A stretch of DNA of 64,000 nucleotides from an uncultured delta proteobacterium (GCA_963745025.1 CAVUWD010000011.1:288001-352000); one strand, 5' to 3'. Counted from the stretch's first letter, positions 28,040-54,330 are shown. Numbers and translations are program-made. The notes: generated by a model from the sequence alone, not told the origin.

Positions 28040-28096
28040 GCTCTTCTCCTTCTCGCGCCGCTCGGCGCGCTCCTCCGACGGGGAAACGGGAATCGA

Positions 28097-33043: not shown

Positions 33044-33050
33044 CACTCCT

Positions 33051-35192: not shown

Positions 35193-35464
35193 CGCCCTGT
35201 CTCCTCTTCGCGCCGGCGCCGCGCTGAAATCACGGCGTCGCTTCGTTCACCCGTCAGACCATAGTGGCAACTGCCATGGCGCCGGAAGAAGTGTCAAGGC
35301 GAGATGTCGCTGCCCTCGAAGCGAGAACGATTTGGTTCTTCCGGTCGGTCGAGAGCTTTGACCGGCGCCGGCTGCCCGAGGTATTCGCAGCGCGCGGCGT
35401 CGTAGCGTCCGGTGCGGCGACTCTCGGGCGATTCGAAGATCCGTCGCGGTCATGGAGGCAGAGG

Positions 35465-36121: not shown

Positions 36122-36239
36122 GCGCGGGCGGCGCGCCGCTTGACGCCGCCGTTCGATTGGATTTGTGTTCCCCCTGGGTTAGAGATTCGGCGTCTTGAGC
36201 AGATCCTCTCCGGCCAATCACGTCCGGCGCATCCGTCCC

Positions 36240-37337
36240 ATGGCGCTGGAGGCGCGCCTTGCGGGACCGCTCACCGTCGCCCTTCGTTCGGACGACCGAG
36301 CGGTGGCGGAGTGGCTCATCGAATTCCTCCATCCGTGGTTCGTGCCCACCGCGGGAGCCGCCGAGATTCAGGTTTCGGTGTCGAGCGCGGAAGGTGCGTA
36401 CGCCGAGCTCGACGTTCGGCGCCCACTCGACGCGGCTCCCCGCGCCTGTTTTGCCTTGGATCAACAGGTGGTCTCACTGCCCGCCTGGTCCACCGAGGAA
36501 GGCATAACGGTCGCGGACCCGAGGCGCTCGTGCTTTCTCGTCCTAGCCCCACGCCAGATCGCCCTCTTCGGCGACCCGACCACGCGACGGTGGCGGTTCA
36601 CCCTGCAGCTCGTCTTCCATGAAATCGCAGCCACCCGGGCGCGCCGCACGGACCTCGATCTCCATGCCGCCGCCATCGAAGCCGGCGGCCGTGCAGTCGT
36701 GATCGTCGGCCCCAAGCGCGCCGGCAAGACGACGCTATCTTTCCACCTCTTGCGCTCGGAGCGCTGCCGTTGGATCGCCAACGACCGCGCGTTCGTCGGA
36801 AACGCCGGTAGGGCGGCGTTCACGATTCGCGGGATGCCCACGGCGGTGAAGATCCAGCCGCCGATGCTCCATGAGTTTCCCGAGCTGCGGCGAGGGCTCC
36901 GCAACGTGGAGCGGCCGTATCTCCACGCCGTCAACGAGGTCGCCGGCGCAAGCCTCGGCGAAGAGCTCGACGGGTCGGTCGAATTCGCGTTGAGCCCGGC
37001 GCAGCTCGCGCGGCAGTTGAAGGTGGAGCCGCTGGCCTCGGCGCCGTTGGCCGCGATCGTCTTTCCGCAGATCCGCCCCGAGACGGCTGGCTTCGCCGTC
37101 GAGCGGCTCGACACGGCGGAGGTGAGCGCCGGAATCTGGGCGAACCTCTACGGCAAGCCTTCCGGCCGGCACGAGCCGACCCTGTTCGAGGAGCTCGACG
37201 GTGGGACGCGCGCTTCGCGGCGAAGCCTGGCGGATGCGCTCTCGGAAATCGTTCCCGGCTACCGCGTCGTTCTCGGCCGCGACGCCTACGCCGCGCCCGA
37301 CTTCGCCGTGCGGTTGCTGGAAACCGTCCTGCCGTGA
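36240..37337 (+). CDS. HPr kinase-related P-loop kinase
   Basis: LHAAAIEAGGRAVVIVGPKRAGKTT and IAND, HprK-like signature; alternative TTG start at 36195. Confidence 0.8.
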   Translation: MALEARLAGPLTVALRSDDRAVAEWLIEFLHPWFVPTAGAAEIQVSVSSAEGAYAELDVRRPLDAAPRACFALDQQVVSLPAWSTEEGITVADPRRSCFLVLAPRQIALFGDPTTRRWRFTLQLVFHEIAATRARRTDLDLHAAAIEAGGRAVVIVGPKRAGKTTLSFHLLRSERCRWIANDRAFVGNAGRAAFTIRGMPTAVKIQPPMLHEFPELRRGLRNVERPYLHAVNEVAGASLGEELDGSVEFALSPAQLARQLKVEPLASAPLAAIVFPQIRPETAGFAVERLDTAEVSAGIWANLYGKPSGRHEPTLFEELDGGTRASRRSLADALSEIVPGYRVVLGRDAYAAPDFAVRLLETVLP

Positions 37338-38200
37338 CGATCCCAGGCCCGCCCGAGGTATCGCGAGACGTCGAGGAAGCGCTCGATCGACACGGCCTGC
37401 GCCCGCGGCGAATCGAGCTCGTCTCGCCGCTGCGCGAGCGGAAGGGGATCCGCTTTGCGTACCGGGTGGATGCCGACGACGGCCGAAGCATCAAGGCGCG
37501 ACACTTCGGAGCCCCCGAGGACGCGCGCCGCCACTTCGAGCTGCGCGCCGGCCTGGAAGCGGCCTTCGCGCCGGCGCTAGCCAACTACGGGTCCGTGGTC
37601 CTCGAGGAGTGGGTCGAGGGCGCGGCGCTCACCGAGCTCGACGCGGACGCTCGGGCCGAAGAGGCCGGAGCGTTGCTCGGACGGCTGCACGCCCGGTCGC
37701 TCGGTCCGGAAGTTCCCTCCGTGATCCGTACCCGGAAGTGGATCGAGGGCGCCGAGTCGGACCTCGCGATCCTCACGAGCGCCGGCGCGCTCGCGCCCGA
37801 CGAAGCGGTTCGTCTGCGAGCCGAGATCCGTCGACGCGATCCGCGGTCGGCCCGAACGGCCCTCATCCACCTCGACTTCTGCGTCGAGAACATGCTGATC
37901 GATCCGCGAGGTGAGCTGCGAATCATCGATAACGAGTTGCTCGCCATCAATCCGGCGGGCCTCGATCTCGGACGCACCTTCCACCGCTGGCCGATGCCGG
38001 AGGCGACGTGGGGCCGCTTCCTCCGCGGCTACCGTTCCTCGGCCCCGAGCGAGCCGGAAGCGACCGGGTTTTGGAAGATCGTCGCGGCCCTGACGGGCAC
38101 GAGAGTGTTCCTTCAGCGAATGCCGGCGCGCGTCGATGCGTCTGTCGCGCTGCTTCGCCGCTTCGCCGAGGGCGAGAGCCTCGCGGATCCGCTGCCGTGA
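37334..38200 (+). CDS. Aminoglycoside phosphotransferase (APH)-family kinase
   Basis: LEEWVEG, LGRLH, IHLDFCVENM, IIDNE; GTGA overlaps at both ends. Confidence 0.82.
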   Translation: MTIPGPPEVSRDVEEALDRHGLRPRRIELVSPLRERKGIRFAYRVDADDGRSIKARHFGAPEDARRHFELRAGLEAAFAPALANYGSVVLEEWVEGAALTELDADARAEEAGALLGRLHARSLGPEVPSVIRTRKWIEGAESDLAILTSAGALAPDEAVRLRAEIRRRDPRSARTALIHLDFCVENMLIDPRGELRIIDNELLAINPAGLDLGRTFHRWPMPEATWGRFLRGYRSSAPSEPEATGFWKIVAALTGTRVFLQRMPARVDASVALLRRFAEGESLADPLP

Positions 38201-38979
38201 CCGAATCCATCGTGGTCGTCTGCATGGGTGGGATCGGCCACGTGCAGATCCTCCTGCCGGTGATTTCCGGGCTTGCCTCTCGCGGCCGCGTCGTGCACGT
38301 GATGACCCGCAGCGACTTCCGGACCCAGGTCGAGGGCGCGGGCGCGCGGTTCGTCGACCTCTACGCGCACCGTCCGCTCGACGCGGTGGACGCGACGTCG
38401 ATTCCCTTCCCGAGCCGCTTCGTCACCTTCGCCGCGATGTACGACGAAAGCCTGTCCGATGAGATCGGCGCGCTCGCACCTGCCTTGATCGTCTACGATA
38501 CCTTCACGCTCGCGGGCCCGGTGGCGGCGCGGCGGCTCGGCATCCCGTACGTCAACGTCTGCCCGAACCACGCGCCGGTTCCGGCTCGCATGATCGAGGC
38601 ATTGCGGCGGGACCCGCGGGTAGCCGTTTCCGCCGAGTGCCATGCGGCCGTGAAGCGCCTGCAGGAAGTTCACGGGATGAGCGGCGCCAATCCGTTTTCG
38701 TACTACGAGGCGTTGAGCCCCTACTTGAACGTGTACGGCGAGCCCGCGGAGTTCCTCGACCCGGACGAGCGCGCAGCCCTCGCCCCAATCGCATTCTTCG
38801 GGTCGCTTCTGCCGCCCGTGCGGCGAGACGGCGCCATCGCCGGAGCATTTCCCCGCGGCCGCCGCGGTGCCATCGCCCCCCTCGGCGGCCGCTCTCGGCG
38901 CACCATCCCCCTAACGGCCCAAACGTGGAAAGCCGCGCCCGGCGCGGAGTTCCCCTCCCCTACCCCGCGAAATTGTTAG
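38197..38979 (+). pseudogene. GT1 glycosyltransferase copy A, C-terminal sugar-donor domain missing
   Basis: Homologous to 46019-47236 up to about 38856 (GAFPR), then unrelated sequence; lacks the HHG.NS..E motif. Confidence 0.85.
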
Positions 38980-39006
38980 CCGATTCCCCTCGCGTGGAAA
39001 TTCAGG

Positions 39007-39279
39007 CTAGCCGAGCGCGGAGCCCTTCCCCGCTCGATTCATGACGAGATCCGCCAACAGCTCGACGGTATCCATGCGACCGACGCGAATGTCCTCGGGC
39101 TCGAGGGTGAACGAGAACTGCTCCTCGAGGAAGGTGACGAGTTCGAGCATCGACACCGACGTCATGACTCCGCTGCTGATGAGCAACGTCGAGTCCTGGA
39201 GCGTTTCCGCTGCTTCGCCCAGGAGGAAGTTGGCGAGGATGAAGGAACGAATCGTTTGCCGAATTTCCTCGCGCGTCAT
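39007..39279 (-). CDS. Acyl/peptidyl carrier protein, copy A (intact)
   Basis: IRSFILANFL, LISSGVMTSVSMLELVTFLEEQF, DTVE. Confidence 0.88.
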   Translation of the reverse strand: MTREEIRQTIRSFILANFLLGEAAETLQDSTLLISSGVMTSVSMLELVTFLEEQFSFTLEPEDIRVGRMDTVELLADLVMNRAGKGSALG

Positions 39280-39340
39280 CGCCGATCACCCGTTGCCGTT
39301 CGAACGCCGCAGGAAGCTAGTTCTGCGACCTGCATCCTGT

Positions 39341-39428
39341 CAACGCTTCCACCAGTCCGGGCGGAGCCCCTTCACGAGAGAGGACATCGCCACCTCGACT
39401 TCGTCTTTGATGTGCTCCGGCACCTCGA
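39341..39428 (-). pseudogene. Rieske oxygenase 3' remnant (copy A)
   Basis: Near-identical to 49122-49209. Confidence 0.85.
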
Positions 39429-39430
39429 AG

Positions 39431-39670
39431 GTTCACGTCCTCGTCGATTCGTCGCGCGTGGCCCGTTGGCGCCTCGCGGCACCGTTCGCCGCTCCGGCGA
39501 TCCAGGAAGTGGCGATCCCCGCGGGTCTGCTCGTGGCTATGCGCCCATGCACGATCGATTTCCGCATCATGCGACCGCGCTCGCCCGCGTCCCTCGGGCT
39601 GAGCGCAGACCAGAGGCTGCTCGGCATCCATTTGAGCTCGCTTCGCCTCCGCCCGGGCCCCGTTGCGTAG
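39431..39670 (+). pseudogene. Nucleotidyltransferase gene 3' remnant (copy A)
   Basis: Near-identical to 51858-52097 (VHVLVDSSRVARW...GPVA*). Confidence 0.85.
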
Positions 39671-39699
39671 TCGGGCTCCACGGCGCTATGCGGACGAGC

Positions 39700-40227
39700 A
39701 TGGGCCAGGGGATGCTTCGAGGAAAAGTCGCCATCGTGACCGGGGCGGGCAGCCCGATCGGCACGGGCCATGCGATGGCGCTCGCGCTGGCGCGGGCGGG
39801 AGCGCGCGTGGCGTTGCTGGATCTCAACCGAGAGTGGCTCGCACAAAATTTCTGGGAAGTGCCCGTGGCCGCCTGGGACCGGGCTACGGGCCGTCCAAGG
39901 CCGGGCATGAAGCTCTCGTCGCCCTCATGGCACACGAGCTCGAAGGCAGCGGCGTGACGGCGAACGTCCTGGTCCCCGGCGGTCCGACCAACACCAACTT
40001 CTTCGCCGCCGAGGCGAAGGTCGATCGGGCCGCCCTCATTCAACCCGAGGTCATGCAGGCGCCGGCAGTCTGGCTCGCTTCCGATGCCTCACGTGACGTC
40101 AACGGCCGACGCATCATCGCGTACTACTGGGATGAAAATCTGCCGCTCGGAGAGCGGCTCACCAAGGCAAGCGCGCCTGCGGCCTGGCCGCAGCTCGGCG
40201 AGCAGGCGAGTCACCCCACGCCCGTGA
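39700..40227 (+). pseudogene. SDR oxidoreductase copy A with two internal deletions
   Basis: Matches 52127-52972 but lacks about 52272-52459 and 52497-52629. Confidence 0.88.
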
Positions 40228-41567
40228 AGATCACCGACGCGGAAGTCGACCGGATTGCCCGAGCGCTCGGGGATGCACCCAGCGCGGCGTACACGACGCC
40301 GCACGTGTACCCGTGGGCCGTGCAGAACTTCGAATCGCGGCCGCTCGCCGAACGCCCGCAGCCGGCGAACGGCGATCTCCGACTCTACGTCCACATCCCC
40401 TTCTGCAACTACCGCTGTACGTTCTGCTTCTTCGCCGTGCGCGTCGGCGCCAAGCAGCGGGAAATGGAGCGGTACGTGGCCGCGCTCGAGCGAGAGCTCG
40501 AGTGGGTCGCGCCGGGGACCTCGCTCTCACAGTTGTTCATCGGCGGGGGCACGCCGACCTCTCTGCCCTCCGATCTTCTCGCGGCCCTTCTCGCCGCGAT
40601 CTTCGCGCGTATGACGTCATCCGGCGAGCGCCCTCACACCGTGGAGGCGTCCCCGGAATCGATCCGTGAGGCACACCTGCGCGCGCTGCAGGATCACGGC
40701 GTCGGCCGGGTGAGCATGGGCATCGAGAGCCTTGACGACGCGGTGTTGGACGCCGTGCGCCGCCGCCACAGCCCCGCCCAGACGCTCGAGGCGTGCCGGA
40801 TGGTCGTGGAGAGCGGCGTCGCCTTGAACGTCGACCTCATCTACGGCCTTCCCGGTCAGACGGAGGCGAGCTTCCAGCGCGATCTCGAAGCGGTCGCCGC
40901 CGCTGGGGTTCACTCGCTCTGCTTGTACGTCTTGCGACTCAACGAGCACACGCCGGTCGCAGCGCGGCTCGCCGCCGAGGAGCGACTCGACCTGAAGCGG
41001 CTGATGCGCTGGCGCGCGTTCGTGACCCGCGCCGCCGAGGAGCTCGGATTCGAGCAGACGCGTTGCTTCATGTTTGAGCGCCGTCCCACGACCCGGCCGG
41101 AGCAGTCGCCGACCTCCGCGGCCGCCGGCACGGTCGACCAACTCGGCATCGGCATGAGCGCACGCTCCCAGCTCGGCGACGTCGTCTATCGCAACCACGA
41201 GCGATCTGAAACCTACCTGCAGCGGGTGGAGCGGAGCCTGAGCCCCGTCGAGACGGTGTTCCACCTGGACGTCGCCGACCGCAAGACGCAGTTCGTCGCG
41301 GGCTCCCTCGGTTGCGGCAAAGCGCTCTCGCGCGTCGCCTACGAGCACGCGTTCGGCGCTTCGATCGACACCGACTTCGGCGAGCTGCTCGAGCGCCTCC
41401 GCCACGCGGAGCTGATCGAGGACGACGGCGCGCGGGTCGTGCTGACCGAGCCGGGAAAGCTCGTCTACGACCGCGTGCTGCTCTGCTTCTACCCTGAGCG
41501 CGCCAAGCGGTGGCTGCGAGACTGGGCCGCCGGGCCGAGGGATCACCGCAGCGAGCCGCGACGGTGA
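40224..41567 (+). CDS. HemN-like (class C) radical SAM enzyme, copy A
   Basis: LYVHIPFCNYRCTFC, GGGTPT, RVSMGIES, DLIYGLPGQT, LGIGMSA. Confidence 0.9.
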   Translation: MKITDAEVDRIARALGDAPSAAYTTPHVYPWAVQNFESRPLAERPQPANGDLRLYVHIPFCNYRCTFCFFAVRVGAKQREMERYVAALERELEWVAPGTSLSQLFIGGGTPTSLPSDLLAALLAAIFARMTSSGERPHTVEASPESIREAHLRALQDHGVGRVSMGIESLDDAVLDAVRRRHSPAQTLEACRMVVESGVALNVDLIYGLPGQTEASFQRDLEAVAAAGVHSLCLYVLRLNEHTPVAARLAAEERLDLKRLMRWRAFVTRAAEELGFEQTRCFMFERRPTTRPEQSPTSAAAGTVDQLGIGMSARSQLGDVVYRNHERSETYLQRVERSLSPVETVFHLDVADRKTQFVAGSLGCGKALSRVAYEHAFGASIDTDFGELLERLRHAELIEDDGARVVLTEPGKLVYDRVLLCFYPERAKRWLRDWAAGPRDHRSEPRR

Positions 41568-41791
41568 CCCGACCACTGGCACTGCTTGAGGCGGTACGCG
41601 CGCTGCGAAGTAAAGACGGCATGGATCTCGCGCCCGAGCTCGGTGCCATCCACGAGCTTTCCCGCGTGCGCAAGGAAAGTTACGTGATACGCCAACACGT
41701 CGTGCGCCTCGCGAGCTACTACACGCAGAAGAAGTTGACGGGCATTATTGCCCCGCTACCGACCGACCCGAAACCGAGGGGCGACGGCTGA
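41564..41791 (+). CDS. Hypothetical 75-aa ORF overlapping the rSAM stop
   Basis: GTGA overlap at 41564-41567; no motif; may be a remnant. Confidence 0.3.
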   Translation: MTRPLALLEAVRALRSKDGMDLAPELGAIHELSRVRKESYVIRQHVVRLASYYTQKKLTGIIAPLPTDPKPRGDG

Positions 41792-41866
41792 TCTCCGCGT
41801 AGCGGGAGGAGAGGACAGGGTCGTTCTGTGGAGGAGCCCGTGGCGCAAGCGTGCTGCCGCTTCGCG

Positions 41867-43600
41867 ATGCGCGACCGGCTCCTCGCCGTCGCATCGTACA
41901 CGATCGTCGCGCTAGTCTGCCTCGCTCGGCTCGACGGCGTGTTCACGTTCCGCGACCTCACCTCGACCGACACGGAACTATACTACCGCGCCGCATCGAC
42001 GTGGCTCGGCCAAGGGCTCCTCACCGTCGATCGCGCGCCGCTATACGCGGTGCTTCTTGCCGTCGCGCGAATGGTGATCGACGACGCCACCATCGTCATT
42101 CCCGCTCACCGCGTAATCGCGGCGCTCGCGCTGGCTCTCGCCGGGCACGCGTTCTTCCGGCGCCTGTTCCCAGCCCCGATCGCGCTGGTGCTCGCGACAT
42201 GGGCTGCCTTAGTTCCCACGCAGTTCGACGGCCTCTATGAGGTTCATCTCGTCGGCGCCGCGGCTTGCGCGATCACCGCGTGGGTTGCGACGTACGGCGA
42301 GCGGCGAAGCGCTCGCGGCGCCGTCCTCGGGCTGCTGCTGATCTTCTCTCTCATCCGCTCCGAGCTCCTGGCGGCGGCGGTCGCCTGGGGGGCCGCTTGT
42401 GCCTTCTACGAGTTCCGCCTGCGGCGCTCGAACGGCGCGAGCCCCGGGTCCGTCCTCCTGCCCTTCCTGCTTCCCCCGCTCGCCTTGGCCGTCGTGCTCT
42501 CCATCACCTTCGCCGCCGGCGGGTGGGCACCGAGATTCCGCACGCCCAAGACCACGCGGCACTTCTGCAACGCCTACGCGCTTGGTGTCGCGGAGCGTGA
42601 GGGCCTGCCACGCCGCGCTACGTGGGTCGGATGCAAGCGAATCTTGCTGCGCGATTTCGGGCGCGCCGACGTGGGACCCTTCGGAGCACTGACGGCATCG
42701 CCGCGAGCGATGCTTGGCCACTTCGCCTGGAACCTCCGACTGCTGCCGGCCACGCTGGAGCTGCTACTGTGGGGAGCGACCGGGGCCGCCGAGGGCTCGG
42801 ATTACGTTCCGATACCCACGGGCTCGCTCGTGGCGCGCGGCGCGAGTGTCGTGCTCATCGCGCTCGTCGTCGCTGGTTCCATCCGCCTACGCCCGCCAAT
42901 CGACCCCCGCTTGGAGGCGCGCCGCCATTGGGGCTTCATCGGCCTCGGAGCGCTCCTCGCCACGTCGTTCGTCGTCTTGGTCGCCTCGCGAGCGCGCGCC
43001 CCGTATCTCGCGCCTGTCGGGATTGGCATGTTCGCACTCGTCGGCAGAGCACTCGAAGCGCTTTGGCCGGCGGCGCGCTCGAGACGGGCCGAACTCGCCG
43101 TGATCGGCCTCGTCCTCTGCGCGGTACCGTTCGTACCGGCTCGCTACGACGCAGCGTACCAAACACCCAACGATGCCCTCAATCAGGCGCCAGCATCCGA
43201 GGTTGGCGGGGGGCAGCCGACCGCGATCGCGGTGCGACGCCTCAACCGCAATCGCGACGAACTCGCTTCGGAGTCCGTGCGGCTCGCTGCGGCGCTCCGG
43301 CCGACGGCCCTTTGCTGCTACCTCTCCTCGAGCAAGGGAATCTGCGCCGGGGTACGGGTCGGTGCGCTGCTCACTATAGAAGATCCCGCGCTCCTCGATC
43401 GAGAGATCCGGAGGCTTGGAACCACGCACTTCTACGTCGACGAACGCCCGACCGCACGCGCGGCGAAGGAACTCGAGAGCGCCGGGCTCGGATGGACGAG
43501 GGTCGCGCCCGCGGACCGCCGCGAGCCATGGGTCCTCTTGCGCGCGGAGCCTCGCGCCCTCCAACGGGCCCCTGCAACGACACCGCTTCACACGGAGTGA
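41867..43600 (+). CDS. Polytopic membrane protein, GT-C-like
   Basis: Many TM segments, N-terminal loop DLTSTDTELYY/APLY, soluble C-terminal tail. Confidence 0.65.
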   Translation: MRDRLLAVASYTIVALVCLARLDGVFTFRDLTSTDTELYYRAASTWLGQGLLTVDRAPLYAVLLAVARMVIDDATIVIPAHRVIAALALALAGHAFFRRLFPAPIALVLATWAALVPTQFDGLYEVHLVGAAACAITAWVATYGERRSARGAVLGLLLIFSLIRSELLAAAVAWGAACAFYEFRLRRSNGASPGSVLLPFLLPPLALAVVLSITFAAGGWAPRFRTPKTTRHFCNAYALGVAEREGLPRRATWVGCKRILLRDFGRADVGPFGALTASPRAMLGHFAWNLRLLPATLELLLWGATGAAEGSDYVPIPTGSLVARGASVVLIALVVAGSIRLRPPIDPRLEARRHWGFIGLGALLATSFVVLVASRARAPYLAPVGIGMFALVGRALEALWPAARSRRAELAVIGLVLCAVPFVPARYDAAYQTPNDALNQAPASEVGGGQPTAIAVRRLNRNRDELASESVRLAAALRPTALCCYLSSSKGICAGVRVGALLTIEDPALLDREIRRLGTTHFYVDERPTARAAKELESAGLGWTRVAPADRREPWVLLRAEPRALQRAPATTPLHTE

Positions 43601-43661
43601 TCTACCCGTAGTGCCGACGGAGATCCCAGCGAGCGCAGGCCCGATTCTGGATAGCCGCCCG

Positions 43662-45680: not shown

Positions 45681-46022
45681 TTGAACAGATCTGCTTCTTC
45701 GCCGAACCATGGCCGGCGTGTCAGTCCCGTGGAGTTCGAGACGCAGCTCGCGGGACCCTTCACCGCCGCTCTTCGCTCGAACGACCGAGCAACAGCGGAG
45801 TGGCTCATCGAGTTCCTCCATTCGTGGTTCGTGCCCTCCGCGAGGGCGGGCGCGATCCAGGTGTCGGTTTCGAACGCGGAAGATTCTGATACCGAGCTCT
45901 CCGACGAGGTCGCCGGCGCATCGCGAGAGGTCGAGGACGTGCTCGATCGATACGTCGATGCCTCGGTTGCGTTGCTTCGCCGTTTCGCCGAGGGCAAGAG
46001 CCTCGCGTATCCGGTGCCATGA
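45681..46022 (+). pseudogene. In-frame mosaic remnant of the HprK-like and APH kinase genes
   Basis: Four joined pieces: HprK N-terminus, EVAGAS (36934-36950), SREVEDVLDR (37360-37390), VDASVALLRRFAEG.SLA (38131-38200). Confidence 0.88.
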
Positions 46023-47236
46023 CCAGGTCCATCGTGGTCTTGTGCATGGGAGGGACCGGGCACGTGCAAGCCCTCCTCCCGTTGATTTCCGGGCTCGCCT
46101 CTCGCGGCTGCATCGTGCACGTGATGACCCGCGGCGACTTCCGCGCCCACGTCGAGGGAGTGGGTGCGCGCTTCGTCGATCTCTACGCACGCCGCCCGCT
46201 CGAGGCAGCGGATGCGACGTCGATGCCGTTCCCAAGCCGATTCGTCACCTTCGCCGCGACGTACGCCGAAAGCCTGGCCGAGGAGGTCGGCGCGCTCACC
46301 CCGGCATTGATCGTCTACGACACCTTCACGGTTGCAGGTCCGGTGGCGGCGCAGCGGCTCGGCATTCCGTATGTCAACTTCTGCTCGAACCACGCGCCGG
46401 TTCCGGCCCGCATGATCGCGGCCTTGAGGCGCGACCCCCGCGTCGCCATTTCCGCCGAGTGCCGCGCGGCCGTGCGGTGCCTCCGGGAAGTTCACGGGAT
46501 GAGTGGCGCCAATCCGTTTTCATACTACGAGGCGTTGAGTCCGTACTTGAACGTGTACGCGGAGCCGGAGGAGTTCCTCGAGCCAGACGAGCGCGCCGCC
46601 TTCGAGCCGATCGCCTTCTTCGGGTCGCTCCTGCCGCCGGCATCACGAAACGCCCCGGTTATCGGAGCGTTCCCGCGCAGCCGGGACGGAAGAAAAGTCT
46701 ACGTTTCGTTCGGCACGGGTGTCTGGCGGTATTTCGCAACCGTCGCCCTCGCCGCGTTGAAGGCCGTCTCCGATGCCCTTGCGAACCACGATGCGGCCGT
46801 CCTCGTGAGTCTTGGCGGGAGCGACGTCGCGGCGGATGCCCGCGGCGAGCTCGTACGGTCGAACGTCCGCATCGTCGACTACGCCGATCAGTGGGCGGCG
46901 CTCGAGGAGGCCGACCTCTTCATCACCCACCACGGAACCAACTCGACCCACGAATCGATCTTCCACGAAGTTCCCATGCTCTCGTACCCCTTCTTCGGCG
47001 ATCAACCGGCGCTCGCTCGGCGCTGCCAGGAGCTCGGCCTGGCCGTTCCGCTGACTGCCGAGCCGCAAACCCCGGTCACCCCCGAAGCGCTGCTCGCGGC
47101 GTTGCGGCGGGTCGCCGACGAGCAAGACCGCTTTGCGGCCCGCTTATCCGAGGCGCGGTCGTGGGAGCTTCGTACGATCGCCGATCGCGGAGCCGTCCTC
47201 GATCGCATCCTCTCGTGCACTTCGGCGTCCGCTTGA
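46019..47236 (+). CDS. GT1 (MGT/UDP-glycosyltransferase) family, copy B (intact)
   Basis: GHV, VYVSFGT, DQWAALEEADLFITHHGTNSTHE, FGDQ. Confidence 0.92.
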   Translation: MTRSIVVLCMGGTGHVQALLPLISGLASRGCIVHVMTRGDFRAHVEGVGARFVDLYARRPLEAADATSMPFPSRFVTFAATYAESLAEEVGALTPALIVYDTFTVAGPVAAQRLGIPYVNFCSNHAPVPARMIAALRRDPRVAISAECRAAVRCLREVHGMSGANPFSYYEALSPYLNVYAEPEEFLEPDERAAFEPIAFFGSLLPPASRNAPVIGAFPRSRDGRKVYVSFGTGVWRYFATVALAALKAVSDALANHDAAVLVSLGGSDVAADARGELVRSNVRIVDYADQWAALEEADLFITHHGTNSTHESIFHEVPMLSYPFFGDQPALARRCQELGLAVPLTAEPQTPVTPEALLAALRRVADEQDRFAARLSEARSWELRTIADRGAVLDRILSCTSASA

Positions 47237-47242
47237 GCTCGA

Positions 47243-48778
47243 TCACTGCGCCGGAGTCTCCCGGCGAAGCCTCTCGAAGTCGATCTTGCCCCTCGAGGTT
47301 CGGGGAAGCGCAGCGTGGAACGCGAAGCGCTCCGGGATCATGTAGGGCGGGAGCTTCACGGCGCAGAACTCCTTCAGCTCGACCACCGAGACGCGCGTAC
47401 CGCTCACGTGGGCCACGAGCTCGAGCCCACGCGAACCGTCGACCGCGACCACGACGGCTTCCTTGATCGCCGGGTGCTCGTAGAGGCGCGTCTCGATCTC
47501 GCCGGGCTCGACGCGATAGCCGCGGAGCTTCACCATGCGCCCGATGCGCCCGGCGTAGCGGAGGTCGCCGGTCGGCAGCTCGACCACCAGGTCGCCGGTG
47601 CGATACCACGGCAGCCCTCCGTCCGCGGCCGGGAGCAGGCGCTCGGCGTTCAGCGCGGGCTGATTCAGATATCCGGTCGTCAGACCCTCGCCGCGGAGTT
47701 GGAGCTCGCCGATCGTTCCCGCGGAAACGACCTCGCCCTGGACTCCGACGACGCGCGCTTCGTAGTGCTCGGACGGGCGGCCGATCGGAGGAGGACCGTC
47801 GAACTCCGCGTCGCGAGGAATCTCGTAGTAGGTGGCGATGTTCGTCTCGGTCGATCCCCAGCAATTGAAGTAACGGGGGTGGGGAAGCCGGCGTCGAAGC
47901 GTCGTCAAGTGGGGCGCCGGAAACACCTCGCCGCCGAACACAACGAGCCGAAGGGCGGAGAGATCGCGTGACTCCAGATCGTCGAGCGCGGCGATCCGCG
48001 ACAGGATCGAGGGAGTCGCGAACAAGATCGTCACTCGCTCCCGGCTGATCAGATCGACAACGTGCCGCGCGAACTGGCGAACCTCGTCGGGAACCAAGAC
48101 CAGCGGCGCGCCGCAGGTCGAGCTCGAGTAGATGTCGAACAGCGACATGGCGAAGTGAAACGGCGCATGGTTGGCGAACACGTCGCGCTCGCCGATTCCG
48201 AACAGGCGATGGCTCCACCGCGCGAACGCGGCGATCGCCGCTCGGCTCATCATCCACCCCTTGTGACGGCCGGTGGTGCCCGACGTGTAGAGAATACAGG
48301 CGATCCCGGACTGCGCGGACGCGCGCTTCGCCCGAAGCTCGGGAGCGAACTCGGCAGGGTCGGGCGCCCACTCGCGGATGGCGCGCCCCAGCCCCACGGA
48401 CGCGATCGGATGGACGTCGACCGATCCGCCGAGCCGCTGCGTCGCCTGCCGATATCCCGCCTCGAAGCGCTCCTCGACGATCGTCAGGCGCACGCCGCAG
48501 TCGGTGTGAATTTCGGCATTGCGCTCGACCGGAGCCCCGGGGTCGACGGGCACATAGGTGCAACCGGCGCGAAGCGTTCCCAGCATCGCGGCGATCGCGT
48601 CGCACGAGCGACGGACGTAGAGACCGATGCGGGCGCCCGGCTCGACGTCCAGCCGACACAATCGAGCGGCGACGCCATCCGCGAGTCGATCGAGATCCGC
48701 GTACGAGACGCTTCCGCGCCCCGGTTCGATCACCGCGGGCCGACCGTCCGCCGCTGCGAGCGAGCCGAGACGGGTCAT
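47243..48778 (-). CDS. Stand-alone adenylation enzyme (DltA/NRPS A-domain-like)
   Basis: YTSGTTGRHKG, FGGE, WGSTETN, WYRTGD, GRIGRMVKLRGYRVEPGEIE, LPPYMIP, GKID. Confidence 0.92.
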   Translation of the reverse strand: MTRLGSLAAADGRPAVIEPGRGSVSYADLDRLADGVAARLCRLDVEPGARIGLYVRRSCDAIAAMLGTLRAGCTYVPVDPGAPVERNAEIHTDCGVRLTIVEERFEAGYRQATQRLGGSVDVHPIASVGLGRAIREWAPDPAEFAPELRAKRASAQSGIACILYTSGTTGRHKGWMMSRAAIAAFARWSHRLFGIGERDVFANHAPFHFAMSLFDIYSSSTCGAPLVLVPDEVRQFARHVVDLISRERVTILFATPSILSRIAALDDLESRDLSALRLVVFGGEVFPAPHLTTLRRRLPHPRYFNCWGSTETNIATYYEIPRDAEFDGPPPIGRPSEHYEARVVGVQGEVVSAGTIGELQLRGEGLTTGYLNQPALNAERLLPAADGGLPWYRTGDLVVELPTGDLRYAGRIGRMVKLRGYRVEPGEIETRLYEHPAIKEAVVVAVDGSRGLELVAHVSGTRVSVVELKEFCAVKLPPYMIPERFAFHAALPRTSRGKIDFERLRRETPAQ

Positions 48779-48787
48779 CCGTGGCGG

Positions 48788-49061
48788 CTAGCCGAGCGCG
48801 GAGCCCTTCCCCGCTCGACTCATGACGAGATCGGCCAACAGCTCGACGGTATCCATGCGACCGACGCGAATGTCCTCGGGCTCGAGGGTCAACGAGAACT
48901 CGCTCCTCGAGGAAGGTGACGAGCTCGAGCATCGACACCGACGTCATGACTCCGCTGCTGATGAGCAACGTCGAGTCCTGGAGCGTTTCCACTGCTTCGC
49001 CCGGGAGGAAGTTGGCGAGGATGAAGGAGCGAATCGTTTGCCGAATTTCCTCGCGCGTCAT
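48788..49061 (-). CDS. Carrier protein copy B, one extra base (frameshift)
   Basis: 274 nt against 273 nt in copy A; extra C near 48901. Confidence 0.85.
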
Positions 49062-49121
49062 CACCGATCACCCGTTGCCGTTCGAACGCCGCAGGAAGCT
49101 AGTTCTGCGACCTGCATCCTG

Positions 49122-50438
49122 TCAACGCTTCCACCAGTCCGGGCGGAGCCCCTTCACGAGCGCGGACATCGCCAGCTCGACTTCGTCTTGATGTGCTCCG
49201 GCACCTCGACGGGAAGAAAGGCGCGGAACATCACGTCCTCGTCTCCGGTCAGTCCCGGCAGCCCCTCGCCTCGCACGCCGTATCCCTTGCGCGCGCCCGG
49301 CAGGGTGATCTTGCGGTTCTTCTGCGGATCGCGAATCACGCCTTGCGGATCGCCTCCCGCGGCGACGATTCTCGCTTGCTCGAGCAGCTTCTCGCGAAAC
49401 ATGATGATGCCCCGGTCCGTCTCGCCGAGGTGCTCCCGGGTTCGATCGACGAGCGGGCCCGGCCCGAGCCAGCTCGCGTAGTCCTGGCTCACGAGGTGGC
49501 TGCCGAAGTCCTCGGTCGGTCCCGCTTCCGGCTCGAGGCTCGCGTGCTTGCGGTAGACGGGGACGCGCTCCTGCTCGACCCTCGGCTTCGGCGGGATCAT
49601 CACCTGCCCGTAGCGGCGTCTTCCAGCTGGTGATCGTCAGTCGATACACCATGATCGTCCGTGCATCGTCGACCGGAACGACCCAGGTCAGATACCAGCC
49701 TTGCCCGCCCGCGCCGTCGACGTTCGGAAACAGCACCGTTCGATCCGCCAGCCATCGATCGGAGCCTTCGAGCTTTCGCTGGAAGACCACCCCGTACTCG
49801 AAGTCCAGCCAGCGAAACGCGGTGTGACGCGGACGCCGGGCCGGAACCTCGCGGCCATGGAGGCGATAGGACCAGCGATCGTGAAGCCACTCGATGTGGA
49901 CGGGATCGTAGAAGCCTTCCATGACCTGAACCCAGTTGCAGGGCAGGTGCAAGAAGGAGACGACCGTGTACCCCGGGCTGTAGAAGCCCGCCCAGTCGGG
50001 CAGCAACGAGGCGGGGTCGGGACCGAGGTACGCCCACAGGAGCCCCGCCTTCGCCTGCACCGGATAGGCGCGCGTGCGGATTCGCTCCTTGAACGTCGGT
50101 TCCCGGATTCACCGTCTCTTCGAACGGCTGCTCGAGACAGCGGCCCGCCTCGTCGAAGCGCCAGCCGTGGTAGCTGCAACGGATCCCGCATTCCTCGACC
50201 ATCCCGTACGAGAGGTCGAACTGGCGATGCGGGCAGCGGCGCTCGAGCAGACCGTAGGTGCCACGCTTGTCCCGGTAGAGGACGAGATCCTCGCCGAGCA
50301 CTCGCACCGGGCCGGATCGGCCGTCTCGGCGAGCTCGTCGACCGCCGCGATCGGCATCCAGTAGCGCCGCAGAAGCTCGCCGACGGGAGTGCCCGCGCCG
50401 ACCTGCGACAGCGTCTTGGCGTCCTCTCGATTGAGCAT
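49122..50438 (-). CDS. Rieske non-heme iron oxygenase (phthalate dioxygenase-like), about 4 frameshifts
   Basis: GELLRRYW.PI, CPHR...CSYHGW Rieske motif, EGFYDPVHIEWLH, QD, EHLGETDRGII. Confidence 0.88.
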
Positions 50439-50467
50439 TGCGCCTCTTACCATAGCCTCCGCCACAA

Positions 50468-52097
50468 GTGTTGCCGCAGCCCCACCAGGAGCTCTTGCTC
50501 AAGGCGGTACTCGCCCCAGGCGACGAAGCGGTCCGCCGCTGGAAGGCATGGCGAGCCGCCAACGACCCCGAGGCGAGTCGAGCGCACAAGTCGCCGCCTG
50601 TTCCCGTCGCGTACCGCAACCTGCGCGACGCTGGGCTCTCGGACCGCGATCTCGCGCTGCTCCGCGAAGCGTACGAGGAGAGCCAGACGAAGATGCACGG
50701 GAAGCTCGCCGCCGCTCGACCCGTGCTGGAAGCCCTCGTCGCAGCAGGGGTCGACCCGCTCGTCCTCAAAGGAGCCGCGCTGACACGATTTTACGCGGGT
50801 GACCCGGCGCTCCGGCCTATGCGGGACGTCGACGTGCTCGTGCCCCCGAGCCAAGTCGAGCGAGCGATCGCGACGCTCTCGGCTCTCGGCTACGAGCCGG
50901 CGGCGGGCATGGCCCTCTCGTGCCTCGCCCGATGCGCGTTCCGGGCCGGTCCGGGCTGGTTGTTCGTCGCTCCGAACGCTCCGGACGTGGACCTGCACTG
51001 GCATGCGCTGCACGAATCCCGCCAGCCGGATGCGGACGACGACTTTTGGCAAGGCGCGATCTCTCTCGACTTCCAGGGCATGAAGGTCAAGGCGATGAAC
51101 GCGACCGACCAGCTTCTCCACGTTTGCGTTCACGGCCTGCAGCGCGAGCTGAGGGAGAACCTCCGCTGGATCGTCGACGCAATCATGATCCTGCGGCACG
51201 AAGCGGAGCCGATCGATTGGCAGCGGCTGCTGGCGCAAGTCGTCGCGGCGTCGTCTGGTACTGCAAGCCCGGTACTGCTTTCAGTATCTGGCCGGGACCT
51301 TCGCGGCTCCGATCCCGCAGCAGGCGCTGGAGCAGCTCCGACGCGCGCGGGTCTCGTGGCTCGAGTGGATGGAGTTTCGCGCGCGGCTCCGCCCCGAGCC
51401 GCGCGGAGCGTTTGCGCAAGCGGTCCTCGCCCACCAACAAGAGGTGCGCCGGGGAGGCAATGCATCGCCCCGGGCGTTTTGCCGCTCGCTGCCGCGCCAT
51501 CTCTGGGGCGCAGCGCGGTGGTGGCAGATGCCCGCCTGGACCGTGCTGGATCGGTTGGGTCTCGATCTCCGCCCGGGCACGACGATGGCGCGCTCCGTCT
51601 TCACGGCTCCGCGCGAGCCCGAGACCCCGATCGCACCACCGGCCTACGAGGTCGGCCAGCGGCTCGTCTTCGGCCGTAACGGTAACGGCCTCCCGGCGCT
51701 ATGCTCCGGATGGTCTTATGCCGAGTCGGTTGGCGTTTGGAGCGAGGGAATCATCGCTCGGTTGGAGTTCGTCCTGCGAGAGCTTTCCGAGGGTCCCTTG
51801 CAGTTGGAAATCGAGCTCGCCGCCGCGATGGTCGGCGAGTCCCATCCGACGCTCGATGTTCACGTCCTCGTCGATTCGTCGCGCGTGGCCCGTTGGCGCC
51901 TCGCGGCACCGTTCGCCGCTCCGGCGATCCAGGAAGTGGCGATCCCCGCGGGTCTGCTCGTGGCTATGCGCCCATGCACGATCGATTTCCGCATCATGCG
52001 ACCGCGCTCGCCCGCGTCCCTCGGGCTGAGCGGAGACCAGAGGCTGCTCGGCATCCATTTGAGCTCGCTTCGCCTCCGCCCGGGCCCCGTTGCGTAG
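50468..52097 (+). CDS. Nucleotidyltransferase family protein (NTP_transf_5-like) with C-terminal beta domain; one frameshift near 51248
   Basis: LVLKGAAL, RPMRDVDVLV, VDLHW, LLHVCVHG, RWIVD; C-terminal GWSYAESVGVWSEG...DQRLLG. Confidence 0.85.
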
Positions 52098-52126
52098 TCG
52101 GGCTCCACGGCGCTATGCGGACGAGC

Positions 52127-52972
52127 ATGGGCCAGGGGATGCTTCGAGGAAAAGTCGCCATCGTGACCGGGGCGGGCAGCCCGATCGGCACGGGCCATGC
52201 GATGGCGCTCGCGCTGGTGCGGGCGGGGGCGCGCGTGGCGTTGCTGGATCTCAACCAGGAATGGCTCGCACGAAGCCTCCGGGAGATCGAAGAGGTCGGC
52301 GGCAGCGGCTCAGCCGTGGCGATCGTAACCGACGTTTCGGACGCCGACGCGGCGGAACGGGCGGTCGACCGCACGATCGCGGAGCTCGGCGGCCTCCACG
52401 TACTCGTCAACAACGCCGGCACCACTCCGCGCGCAAGCGGCTTCAGCACCACCAGCCTGAATTTCTGGGAAGTGCCCGTGGCCGCCTGGGACCGGGTGGT
52501 CGCCGTCAACTTCAGCGGCGCGTTCTACATGGCCCGGGCGGTAGCGGGGCATCTGCTGGCGCAGGGCTGGGGTCGGATCATCGGCGTGACCACGAGCATG
52601 GACACGATGTATCGCAAGCGCGCATCGCCCTACGGGCCGTCCAAGGCCGGGCATGAAGCTCTCGTCGCCCTCATGGCACACGAGCTCGAAGGCAGCGGCG
52701 TGACGGCGAACGTCCTGGTCCCCGGCGGTCCGACCAACACCAACTTCTTCGCCGCCGATGCGAAGGTCGATCGGGCCGCCCTCATTCAACCCGAGGTCAT
52801 GCAAGCGCCGGCAGTCTGGCTCGCCTCCGATGCTTCACAGGCGTTCAACGGCCGACGCATCATCGCGTACTACTGGAACGAGACTCTGCCGCTCGGAGAG
52901 CGGCTCACCAAGGCAAGCGCGCCTGCGGCCTGGCCGCAGCTCGGCGAGCAGGCGATCACCCCACGCCCGTGA
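52127..52972 (+). CDS. SDR family oxidoreductase, copy B (intact)
   Basis: AIVTGAGSPIGTG, VNNAG, YGPSK catalytic YxxxK, PGG. Confidence 0.93.
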   Translation: MGQGMLRGKVAIVTGAGSPIGTGHAMALALVRAGARVALLDLNQEWLARSLREIEEVGGSGSAVAIVTDVSDADAAERAVDRTIAELGGLHVLVNNAGTTPRASGFSTTSLNFWEVPVAAWDRVVAVNFSGAFYMARAVAGHLLAQGWGRIIGVTTSMDTMYRKRASPYGPSKAGHEALVALMAHELEGSGVTANVLVPGGPTNTNFFAADAKVDRAALIQPEVMQAPAVWLASDASQAFNGRRIIAYYWNETLPLGERLTKASAPAAWPQLGEQAITPRP

Positions 52973-54330
52973 AGATCACCAACGCGGAAGTCGACCGGAT
53001 TGCCCGAGCGCTCGGGGATGCACCCAGCGCGGCGTACACGACGCCGCACGTGTACCCGTGGGCCGTGCAGAACTTCGAATCGCGGCCGCTCGCCGAACGC
53101 CCACAGCCGGCGACCGGCGATCTCCGACTCTACGTCCACATCCCCTTCTGCAACTACCGCTGTACGTTCTGCTTCTTCGCCGTGCGCGTCGGCGCCAAGC
53201 AGCGGGAAATGGAGCGGTACGTGGCCGCGCTCGAGCGAGAGCTCGAGTGGGTGGCGTCGGGGACCTCGCTCTCACAGTTGTTCATCGGCGGGGGCACGCC
53301 GACCTCTCTGCCCTCCGATCTTCTCGCGGCCCTTCTCGCCGCGATCTTCGCGCGTATGACGTCGTCCGCTGAGCGCCCTCACACCGTGGAGGCGTCCCCG
53401 GAATCGATCCGTGAGGTACACCTGCGCGCGCTGCAGGATCACGGCGTCGGCCGGGTGAGCATGGGCATCGAGAGCCTTGACGACGCGGTGTTGGACGCCG
53501 TGCGCCGCCGCCACAGCCCCGCCCAGGCGCTCGATGCATGTCGACTGGTCGTGGACAGTGGCCTGCTCCTGAACATCGACCTAATCTACGGCCTTCCCGG
53601 TCAGACGGAGGCGAGCTTCCAGCGCGATCTCGAAGCGGTCGCCGCCGCTGGGGTTCACTCGCTCTGCTTGTACGTCTTGCGACTCAACGAGCACACGCCG
53701 GTCGCAGCGCGGCTCGCCGCCGAGGAGCGACTCGACCTAAAGCGGCTGATGCGCTGGCGCGCGTTCGTGACCCGCGCCGCCGAAGAGCTGGGATTCGAGC
53801 AGACGCGTTGCTTCATGTTTGAGCGCCGTCCCACGACCCGGCCGGAGCAGTCGCCGACCTCCGCGGCCGCCGGCACGGTCGACCAACTCGGCATCGGCAT
53901 GAGCGCGCGCTCCCAGCTCGGGAACGTGGTCTACCGCAACCACGAGCGGTGTGAAACGTACTTGCAGCGGATGGAACGAGGCCTGAGCCCCGTCGAGACG
54001 GTGTTCCACCTGGACGTCGCCGACCGCAAGACGCAGTTCGTCGCGGGCTCCCTCGGTTGCGGCAAGGCGCTCTCGCGCGTCGCCTACGAGCACGCGTTCG
54101 GCGCTTCGATCGACACCGACTTCGGCGAGCTGCTCGAGCGCCTCCGCCACGCGGAGCTGATCGAGGACGACGGCGCACGGGTCGTGCTGACCGAGCCGGG
54201 AAAGCTCGTCTACGACCGCGTGCTGCTCTGCTTCTACCCTGAGCGCGCCAAGCGGTGGCTGCGAGACTGGGCCGCCATGCCGAAGGTTCATCGCAGCGGC
54301 TCGGGGCGAGCCTCGGGTCTCGCCGGCTAG
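52969..54330 (+). CDS. HemN-like (class C) radical SAM enzyme, copy B
   Basis: Same motifs as copy A; GTGA overlap with the SDR stop. Confidence 0.9.
   Translation: MKITNAEVDRIARALGDAPSAAYTTPHVYPWAVQNFESRPLAERPQPATGDLRLYVHIPFCNYRCTFCFFAVRVGAKQREMERYVAALERELEWVASGTSLSQLFIGGGTPTSLPSDLLAALLAAIFARMTSSAERPHTVEASPESIREVHLRALQDHGVGRVSMGIESLDDAVLDAVRRRHSPAQALDACRLVVDSGLLLNIDLIYGLPGQTEASFQRDLEAVAAAGVHSLCLYVLRLNEHTPVAARLAAEERLDLKRLMRWRAFVTRAAEELGFEQTRCFMFERRPTTRPEQSPTSAAAGTVDQLGIGMSARSQLGNVVYRNHERCETYLQRMERGLSPVETVFHLDVADRKTQFVAGSLGCGKALSRVAYEHAFGASIDTDFGELLERLRHAELIEDDGARVVLTEPGKLVYDRVLLCFYPERAKRWLRDWAAMPKVHRSGSGRASGLAG

Follow-up and report, generated by a model that had tools for sequence, protein, structure and literature searches.

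In the biosynthesis of paeninodin (PadeK) and pseudomycoidin (PsmK/PsmN), according to the text available from PMC8498205 and PMC13381572, a hydroxyl is phosphorylated and a hexose is then moved onto the phosphate, and the accessible part of PMC8498205 reports that PsmN extends the phosphate on a phosphoserine. Here we describe an island of genes at 36140-54330 in a 64,000-nucleotide stretch of DNA from an uncultured high-GC delta proteobacterium (GCA_963745025.1 CAVUWD010000011.1:288001-352000; hereafter the window, whose positions are used for all coordinates). The island combines a kinase of the HprK/PEPCK fold, an APH-family kinase and a GT1 glycosyltransferase with an adenylation enzyme, a carrier protein and a Rieske oxygenase. 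Full-text searches of the literature yielded no described pathway in which kinases of the HprK and APH folds are coupled with a GT1, nor one that links these three to an adenylation/carrier/Rieske unit; the only paper with PF14907 among the search results is an inventory of phosphonate pathways. The earlier note on this DNA had called the system unrecognised, and it has met no characterised pathway that matches it. We read the locus, at a little below an even chance, as a modular accessory biosynthetic island that follows the mechanism set out below. The product probably derives from a carrier-bound organic acid and bears both phosphate and sugar; every chemical step and the order of the steps we infer from family membership.

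Genes in the window (about 67% G+C) were called by third-position G+C and checked with Pfam and NCBIfam, and the gene-family scan covered the 39 larger open reading frames (ORFs) of 35.2-56.3 kb. These models and fold matches bore out the previously listed gene families, one membrane protein excepted. Self-comparison by BLASTN showed a copy A (36137-41553) and a copy B (45623-54298), which have five collinear blocks in common, 78-98% identical: 36137-36410 with 45623-45899 (78%), 38131-38816 with 45953-46638 (86%), 39005-39431 with 48786-49212 (97%), 39431-39847 with 51858-52274 (98%) and 39884-41553 with 52630-54298 (96%). The offsets of the blocks are unequal, and thus each copy has lost different, complementary parts. 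Copy A retains whole genes for the HprK-like kinase, the APH kinase, the carrier and a HemN-like radical SAM enzyme, and has scars of the GT1, Rieske, nucleotidyltransferase and SDR genes; tblastn with the proteins of two relatives (G006 and L020, see below) placed the last 29 codons of the Rieske gene (minus strand), the last 82 codons of the nucleotidyltransferase gene and two SDR pieces (both plus strand) within 39343-40217. Copy B holds the GT1, adenylation enzyme, a second carrier, Rieske, PF14907 nucleotidyltransferase, SDR and a second radical SAM gene. Both kinases are lost from it, save one 113-codon remnant (45681-46022, plus strand; translation and tblastn) in which the HprK-like N-terminus is fused to the APH C-terminus. 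This scar is bridged by a short-read contig of 198 nt (X3), which spans 45867-46064 without any difference. Two membrane-protein genes (41828-43600 and 43653-45191) sit between the copies, and start and stop codons overlap by 4 nt (GTGA/ATGA), as had been remarked, at 37334, 38197, 46019 and 52969. The gene order that the earlier note had reconstructed from the two partial copies exists as a single copy in two relatives, L099 and G006.

Forty relative genomes were searched for orthologues of the adenylation enzyme and of the HprK-like kinase. Besides the window's own assembly (G000), G001 and G006 each gave both (80-84% identity for the adenylation enzyme, 76-83% for the kinase), and the family's five remaining genomes (65-84% complete) gave neither. 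The six genes (HprK-like, APH, GT1, adenylation enzyme, carrier and Rieske) occur as a full set in each of the four assemblies where any was found, the fourth being L099, a metagenome contig of 19,132 nt. The flanks of L099 match the window's genes for acetone carboxylase and a FAH-family hydrolase at 97.7-97.9% identity, and at this same chromosomal site it carries a single uninterrupted copy of the HprK-like, APH, full GT1, adenylation enzyme, carrier, Rieske and nucleotidyltransferase genes; its SDR-radical SAM pair is deleted, and a 29-codon SDR scar joins the right flank directly. The compact G006 cluster consists of HprK-like, APH and GT1 genes, then adenylation enzyme, carrier and Rieske genes on the opposite strand, then SDR and radical SAM genes. 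It has no membrane-protein gene and no nucleotidyltransferase gene, for which G006 has a DNA match of 67% identity on a different contig. G001 has two loci, one with an HprK-like gene, an APH scar, GT1, nucleotidyltransferase, SDR, radical SAM and a convergent gene of the type of the first membrane protein, the other with Rieske, carrier, adenylation enzyme and APH genes. Three short contigs, L101, L103 and L104 (adenylation enzyme 77%, 86% and 59%), retain the adjacency of Rieske, carrier and adenylation enzyme or of adenylation enzyme and GT1, and L100 (adenylation enzyme at least 59% identical) has no partner gene on its 2,073 nt. All intact genes have ratios of non-synonymous to synonymous substitution rates (dN/dS) of 0.15-0.34 against G006 or L020, the latter being a locus of G001.

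The co-occurrence in other genomes on which the earlier claim of one system depended is therefore present in this family, and the comparisons support that the genes belong together in this lineage. The six-gene core is constant here, and the nucleotidyltransferase, the SDR-radical SAM pair and the membrane proteins, the last seen only in genus g1, are optional. A fixed pathway of nine genes, as first proposed, does not agree with the nucleotidyltransferase outside the G006 cluster, the SDR-radical SAM deletion in L099 and the restriction of the membrane proteins to one genus. L102 (adenylation enzyme 66%) was considered as a further island and rejected, as its neighbours differ; they include an IS200-like transposase fragment (L102:2021-2449, minus strand) directly beside the adenylation enzyme homologue, which is consistent with module mobility.

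The HprK-like kinase of copy A (36195-37337, plus strand) is intact, 380 aa long and 95.8% identical to L099 at the nucleotide level. Its P-loop, GPKxAGKTT, is invariant in 16 homologues. The local Pfam library gave no match to this protein, and the NCBIfam model HprK_rel_B scored 40 bits, under its cut-off of 200. An AlphaFold2 model from the 16 homologues, with a predicted local distance difference test score (pLDDT) of 87.6, matched PEPCK over its whole length (Foldseek E 1e-8; VIA-align Z 14.0), and its C-terminal half (residues 152-380) matched four HPr kinase/phosphatases over 133-135 residues (Z 11.3-11.9, root-mean-square deviation 2.6-3.4), the next unrelated row in VIA-align having a Z of 5.0. 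By this model, the protein has the PEPCK/HprK fold. The APH-family kinase (37334-38200, plus strand, intact, 288 aa; PF01636 E 7.9e-13, 49 bits against a cut-off of 23) has its start overlapping the HprK-like stop in GTGA. Its catalytic residues K54, H179-x-D181-x4-N186 (HxDxxxxN) and the metal-binding D199 are invariant in ten orthologues, and a profile search of PDB sequences found no APH relative of solved structure with an E value of 0.1 or below. Prediction of a complex between the two kinases scored 0.01.

The third member of the triad, GT1, is intact in copy B (46019-47236, plus strand, 405 aa; UDPGT and EryCIII_C), where its best NCBIfam model is TIGR01426, the macrolide glycosyltransferase subfamily, at 129 bits and thus under the cut-off of 260. 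YjiC, OleD/OleI and Kcn28 are among its nearest solved chains, and by these likenesses the enzyme is of the small-molecule type. In copy A a remnant (38197-38979, plus strand) keeps the first ~220 residues followed by an unrelated tail; tblastn matched it only to residues 1-220 of the G006 protein, and L099 runs past 38867 into a full GT1.

On the opposite strand, the stand-alone adenylation enzyme (47243-48778, minus strand, intact, 511 aa; AMP-binding 249 bits) is 98% identical to that of L099 and passes TIGR01733 narrowly (327 against 317 bits). At the position of Asp235, which we take to be that of the alpha-amino-binding Asp of amino-acid-activating domains, it has Ala (FHFAMS), aligned to the Asp of FSFDGS and YIFDIS in the two domains of LgrA. 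This replacement makes a substrate other than an alpha-amino acid likely. The enzyme is thus likely to activate an acid of another kind, and the carrier-tethered acid of the earlier note fits with it. The carrier of copy A (39007-39279, minus strand) is intact, 90 aa long and 82% identical to the G006 carrier; its matches are to the acyl carrier protein (ACP) model NF052616 and to PP-binding. That of copy B (48788-49064, minus strand) is broken by one extra base near 48899-48901. A link to the ornithine-lipid enzymes OlsH/OlsI, suggested by the name of the best NCBIfam model of the carrier, was rejected, as the score lies under the cut-off and the OlsH/OlsI paper, in its accessible text, lists no gene for a carrier protein in its operon and says that OlsH has no need of an ACP. 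The Rieske oxygenase, of the phthalate/LigXa type (49122-50459, minus strand; Rieske and LigXa_C), is broken in the window by six 1-nt indels, and is intact, with 444 aa, in G006 and L099 (PF00355 and PF19301). Read from the intact G006 gene, its nearest relatives are phthalate-dioxygenase-like enzymes, the DdmC (dicamba) and NdmA (methylxanthine) demethylases and SxtT. The sterol demethylase SdmA was rejected as its identity, since the match covers the Rieske domain only and scores 78.8 against a cut-off of 600. Some 145 kb downstream of the window (G000:C11:486000-505999, L018) there is a paralogous adenylation enzyme (41%) with a carrier (36%), next to an O-methyltransferase, a Trp-halogenase-like flavoenzyme, an 872-aa protein without family, a GT2-sulfotransferase fusion and a second sulfotransferase. 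L018 is a second orphan cluster, and its adenylation enzyme/carrier pair is also found in G001 (L019).

The optional genes follow in copy B. The nucleotidyltransferase (50468-52097, plus strand; PF14907, NTP_transf_5, E 2e-39) has a C-terminal extension; its frame is split at residues 258/259 relative to the intact 541-aa protein of L020, and it is likewise intact, with 541 aa, in L099. The classical SDR of copy B (52151-52972, plus strand; adh_short E 1.6e-40) is intact and has a dN/dS of 0.15-0.16 against G006 and L020. Both HemN-like class C radical SAM genes are intact (copy A 40224-41567, in frame with the upstream SDR scar; copy B 52969-54330, 453 aa; both plus strand, with PF04055 and HemN_C) and share 95% amino acid identity, with a dN/dS of 0.28. 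They show the CxxxCxxC motif (CNYRCTFC), PF04055 at 96.5 bits, PF06969 (HemN_C) at 24.1 against a cut-off of 24 and the GGGTP motif, in agreement with class C. Their best NCBIfam models are the STM4012 family (218.6 against 380) and ChuW/HutW (169.4 against 400), both under cut-off, and their nearest solved chains are HemN and NocN.

Outside the family, species-representative genomes were scanned with the HprK-like profile. Among the 79 loci obtained, the 38 with a clear full-length homologue (L020-L057, L020 being the G001 locus) were counted; L058-L098 were set aside, their matches being weak or confined to the surroundings of the P-loop. The record titles of the loci with the kinase pair name several phyla. 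An APH homologue is present in 32 of the 38 loci and directly adjacent to the HprK-like gene in 29; GT1 is present in 15, and the order HprK-like, APH, GT1 is kept in 14. A PF14907 enzyme occurs in 14 loci, a radical SAM orthologue in five, a Rieske orthologue in two and an SDR in two. The only AMP-binding gene, in one locus, is 25% identical and not an orthologue, and no carrier was found (0/38), so that outside the family the adenylation enzyme, carrier and Rieske genes do not accompany the kinases as they do within it. Two long proteins fuse both kinase domains, and a third joins a homologous stretch to an APH domain. In another protein (P0341, 720 aa) an HprK-like domain, 46% identical to that of the window, is fused to a PhyH-type Fe/2-oxoglutarate dioxygenase, which hints that HprK-like kinases may act on enzymatically installed hydroxyls. 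Neither in the window nor in the annotated loci was a PqqD-like RiPP (ribosomally synthesised and post-translationally modified peptide) recognition element (RRE), a precursor, a cyclase or a peptidase found. Small Ser/Thr-rich ORFs near distant triads were considered as precursors and rejected as antisense translations.

Several of the distant loci have glycan-assembly genes as neighbours, namely GT2, GT4, PMT-type GT-C, Wzx-like flippase and ABC exporter genes. At L051:5364-8396, near a distant set of HprK-like, APH, radical SAM and PF14907 genes, a PMT-type GT-C, a LAB_N membrane protein and a GT2 are found together, the usual trio by which a polyprenyl-phosphate sugar is made and used. In the window, the second membrane protein, GTC2 (43653-45191, plus strand), can be assigned to the GT-C glycosyltransferases by its predicted fold (AlphaFold2 pLDDT 88.8): the first 35 Foldseek matches listed were all GT-C enzymes (E 2.3e-6 to 1e-2), the best being PglB, ALG12, STT3, ArnT, AftA and Pmt4. 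W39, R40, D41 and E42 are invariant in its conserved FWRDEAW stretch, with D41 and E42 after the first transmembrane segment, as in an acidic first-outer-loop motif. Two of 70 homologues are fused to UbiA prenyltransferase domains, three of 23 weakly match PF02366, and a DNA search of G001 and G006 found no match to GTC2. The first one, GTC1 (41828-43600, plus strand), is a polytopic protein with at least nine transmembrane segments predicted by hydropathy. It has 363 homologues, and D48, after the first segment, is invariant in its family; PMT_2 was weakly matched in one of 34 homologues (E 9.5e-5), and the GTC1 orthologue adjoins the radical SAM gene in the G001 locus L020. Profile searches of PDB sequences gave nothing useful with either family and no match at all for GTC1, and hhalign of the two families gave a probability of 2%. 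Of the two GT-C-like proteins announced earlier, GTC2 is thus one by fold, and GTC1, with its hydropathy and a single weak PMT_2 match, is a candidate. A 93-codon ORF (41510-41791, plus strand) with moderate coding bias and no family match lies between the radical SAM gene of copy A and GTC1; in G001 the equivalent gap, of 150 nt, is too short for it.

In the island, the translationally coupled HprK/PEPCK-fold and APH-fold kinases and GT1 face the convergent Rieske, carrier and adenylation unit. In the mechanism that we propose, the adenylation enzyme would activate a carboxylic acid other than an alpha-amino acid and load it onto the carrier, and the Rieske oxygenase would hydroxylate or demethylate the loaded acid, leaving a hydroxyl handle. 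Where they are present, the radical SAM enzyme may C-methylate the intermediate and the SDR may adjust its redox state. GT1 would then transfer a sugar from a nucleoside diphosphate sugar, the two kinases would phosphorylate the sugar or the aglycone one after the other, and the PF14907 enzyme, where present, might extend the phosphate by analogy with PsmN. A cell-envelope decoration, the destination suggested in the earlier note, is possible, with weak support from the GT-C neighbour and the glycan genes near distant homologues; the absence of GT-C genes from L099 and from the G006 cluster and the small-molecule type of GT1 weigh against it.

Several observations speak against this mechanism as a whole. 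The carrier scores under both curated cut-offs (NF052616 73.7 against 130; PP-binding 17 against 20.8 bits, E 0.007). The scan of the island gave no acyltransferase, thioesterase, condensation or reductase-release enzyme that could off-load the carrier, and no phosphopantetheinyl transferase or Rieske reductase. Relatives can do without the SDR-radical SAM pair or without the nucleotidyltransferase, and if the frameshifts described below are real, the strain has no functional Rieske oxygenase or nucleotidyltransferase. In the 38 loci of other lineages the kinase pair occurs without an orthologue of the adenylation enzyme or carrier, so that the acid module may have been added in this lineage only, or may simply lie next to the cassette. 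Several of these loci (e.g. L026) have the triad amid housekeeping genes and without a further biosynthetic partner, which also agrees with a stand-alone function.

It is decidedly unlikely, in our estimate, that the triad works by itself as a group-transfer cassette, modifying or inactivating a small molecule, be it exogenous or common, by phosphorylation, glycosylation and nucleotidylation, and that it is linked only physically to the adenylation enzyme, carrier and Rieske genes, on an island prone to recombination. The triads without other pathway genes in L026, L028 and L031 agree with it, as does the shuffling of the island in units among close strains. APH enzymes, OleD/YjiC-like GT1s and Pol-beta-type nucleotidyltransferases are classical antibiotic-modifying families, and the make-up of the cassette resembles them. 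However, its three genes are translationally coupled in an order that is fixed in 14 of the 38 loci and the kinases are sometimes fused, which points to one substrate handled in consecutive steps and not to inactivations that are alternatives, and the triad and the acid unit co-occur in all four assemblies of the family, in three different arrangements. Even less probable is a role of the cassette, with or without the nucleotidyltransferase, in placing phosphate-linked sugars on a ribosomal peptide or small protein, akin to the tailoring of paeninodin and pseudomycoidin or of linear polyphosphorylated peptides. An HprK-fold kinase and a PF14907 enzyme do phosphorylate and then glycosylate the C-terminal Ser of such peptides, according to the available portions of PMC8498205 and PMC13381572, but no PqqD/RRE, lasso cyclase, protease or peptidase family was found in the 39 ORFs and 14 follow-up ORFs scanned, the intergenic gaps of several triad loci are too small for a precursor, and the Ser/Thr-rich small ORFs are antisense artefacts. 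The small-molecule type of GT1 and the fusion of one kinase homologue to a PhyH-type dioxygenase also count against a peptide role.

The integrity of the island in this strain has to be considered separately. Ten frame-breaking 1-nt indels, judged against the G006 and L020 proteins, all lie within 48.9-51.3 kb, in the copy-B carrier (an extra base at ~48899-48901, with the frame change between residues 53 and 55), the Rieske gene (near 49187, 49612, 50100, 50305, 50322 and 50443) and the nucleotidyltransferase gene (a frameshift at ~51244 and a compensated pair at 50577/50607). In seven of the ten, the window has a base too many. None of the ten is present in L099, which is 96-98.7% identical over the stretch from the adenylation enzyme to the Rieske gene. 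Contigs from four public metagenome short-read runs were aligned to copy B, which they cover with gaps such as 50.27-50.44 kb. All six indels that they cover are absent from them, at 48901 (X1, X2 and X3), 49187 (two runs), 49613, 50575/50600 and 51242/51245, and one contig of 2,013 nt removes all three in its span. One contig of run X1 has a 1-nt deletion of its own in the adenylation enzyme gene (48096), which counts against this evidence. Since rpoB, rpoC and the genes flanking the island are uninterrupted, the frameshift problem is local. Of the 47 substitutions between the window and the X2 contig 27 were typed, and among the 26 scored 13 are synonymous and 13 non-synonymous, a pattern that does not look neutral. 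Assembly error appears somewhat likelier than strain-private decay as the source of the indels.

The history of the two copies is likewise composite. The copy-A kinases, GT1 stub and carrier and the copy-B adenylation enzyme, carrier and Rieske genes are 95.8-98.2% identical to L099, the copy-B kinase remnant, GT1 and nucleotidyltransferase and the copy-A nucleotidyltransferase scar only 77-89%, and the SDR and radical SAM genes of the window are 88-89% identical to G001. The two GT1 N-termini diverged long ago (dS 0.395) and the two radical SAM copies recently (dS 0.088). This alternation of identity together with the unequal dS points away from simple tandem duplication and to recombination between two variants of the island that had diverged. 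By these comparisons the locus is a mosaic of two such variants rearranged into two partial copies, the pieces of which apparently hold, provided that the ten indels are assembly errors, one whole copy of every gene; G001 is likewise complementary across its two loci.

A decaying remnant, with the Rieske, second carrier and nucleotidyltransferase genes as true pseudogenes and no complete pathway, would explain the scars that look real (the truncated GT1, the fused HprK/APH remnant and the SDR pieces), one of which is bridged by an independent contig. It would also account for the confinement of the indels to so short a stretch between whole genes and for the losses in relatives, namely the SDR-radical SAM pair of L099, the APH gene of one G001 locus and the two TGA stops in the G001 adenylation enzyme gene. 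We hold it to be unlikely, as each family keeps at least one uninterrupted copy, save those struck only by 1-nt indels, the radical SAM copies have remained under a dN/dS of 0.28 since their divergence and the substitutions relative to X2 are not neutral. Moreover, the indels are all single-base and not shared with L099 at 96-98% identity, so that consensus errors fit them better than deletion-biased decay. The two-copy arrangement itself might be wholly or partly an assembly artefact, e.g. a chimera of strain variants of a genome with one L099-like copy. Such an artefact could produce the window's alternation of L099-like and divergent segments, given that L099 has its single copy at the same site and resembles alternating parts of copies A and B, that the indel errors cluster in this region and that the genome has an estimated contamination of 7.6%. 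We nevertheless give it little probability: the copies differ by 2-22%, too much for an identical repeat that was collapsed or duplicated, a haplotype switch would not give rise to in-frame fusions and internal deletions such as the scars, the left scar of copy B is present in an independent contig, and G001 also has two complementary partial loci.

Under the reading of the locus as a modular biosynthetic island, it is conceivable, if on the whole unlikely, that the two kinases and GT1, with their frequent PF14907 partner, are an undescribed and widely transferred machine for phosphodiester-linked sugars on non-peptide acceptors. Here it would have captured a carrier-dependent acid-activating and Rieske unit, giving phosphoglycosylated acyl or aryl metabolites or envelope decorations of a new class, with fast exchange of modules and with complementary partial copies kept by selection. 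Phosphate-linked glycosides on non-peptide acceptors would, if made, extend a chemistry that is otherwise known from no more than a few modified lasso peptides. For heterologous expression, the single copies of L099 and G006 (~8-9 kb, apparently intact) are more practical templates than the rearranged window. The four close relatives, each with a different subset or arrangement of the same modules, bear on how such islands evolve, and the window is a caution for annotators, being riddled with frameshifts of which every one is private to this assembly according to an independent contig.

A cytidylate-kinase-like gene (35264-36121) just before the island was rejected as a member, as its relatives in G001 and G006 are on other contigs and it belongs to the flank that precedes the single L099 copy. 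Further upstream lie genes for acetone carboxylase-like subunits (gamma, Hydantoinase_B and Hydantoinase_A), then a FadB-like bifunctional enzyme and an acetoacetate decarboxylase family gene (30209-35192 and 27281-30175, minus strand); both G001 and G006 retain the carboxylase block, with 87-92% identity. Some 19 kb of metabolic genes lie between the arms of a 93-nt inverted repeat (7319-7411 and 26409-26501), which are 89% complementary overall and 97% over a core of 75 nt. At 58675-58915, a stretch of ~170-240 nt that lies upstream of an enoyl-CoA hydratase gene has more than 20 matches in G001 on both strands (70-89%) and looks like a dispersed, partly palindromic repeat element. Rfam at gathering thresholds gave no match in 34-57 kb, a promoter and terminator scan did no better than shuffled sequences (1 against 1.1 and 5 against 9.5), and the PADLOC defence models matched none of 12 proteins, apart from two weak generic radical SAM matches.

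Compared with known systems, the island shares with OleD/OleI, YjiC, Kcn28 and CalG a GT-B fold with a C-terminal donor motif, and its APH kinase has an intact Brenner motif; unlike these GT1 and APH enzymes, the pair is fixedly coupled to an HprK-fold kinase, a coupling not found described in the literature. The radical SAM enzymes resemble the class C enzymes NocN/NosN, ChuW/HutW and STM4012 in CxxxCxxC, GGGTP and HemN_C, but they score under every curated cut-off and their gene is optional in the island. With nonribosomal peptide and polyketide synthases the island has in common an adenylation domain with a carrier, the latter sub-threshold; condensation, ketosynthase and release domains are absent among the 39 ORFs of 35.2-56.3 kb and from the G006 flanks (L014). 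The pairing of a free-standing adenylation enzyme with a small carrier of its own, in the absence of a condensation domain, recalls DltA/DltC, and the DltA models score 210-225 bits. However, their cut-offs (476 and 560) are not reached, the alpha-amino Asp is replaced by Ala, there is no MBOAT DltB or DltD, and a Rieske oxygenase is co-transcribed instead. With no thioesterase or MBOAT gene either in the 39 ORFs, the earlier statement that this is neither a standard synthetase of these kinds nor a dlt operon stands. As regards RiPPs, no PF05402 RRE, no other such match and no leader-bearing precursor of at least 25 aa was detected in the 39 larger ORFs and 14 follow-up sequences, which comprised small intergenic ORFs, ORFs without assignment and parts of proteins, and no Asn_synthase, transglutaminase-like or signal-peptidase family (lasso cyclase/B2, LppS-type) in the island. 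The lasso-peptide link drawn in the earlier note therefore holds as an analogy, lacking the recognition element, precursor, cyclase and protease. The analogy lies in an HprK-fold kinase beside a PF14907 nucleotidyltransferase, as in PadeK, PsmK/PsmN and the Bacillota clusters for linear polyphosphorylated peptides. Unlike the kinases of those sets, the kinase described here scores far under the NCBIfam HprK-related models (40 against 200), and its constant partners are the APH-fold kinase and GT1 rather than PF14907, which is found in 14 of the 38 loci.

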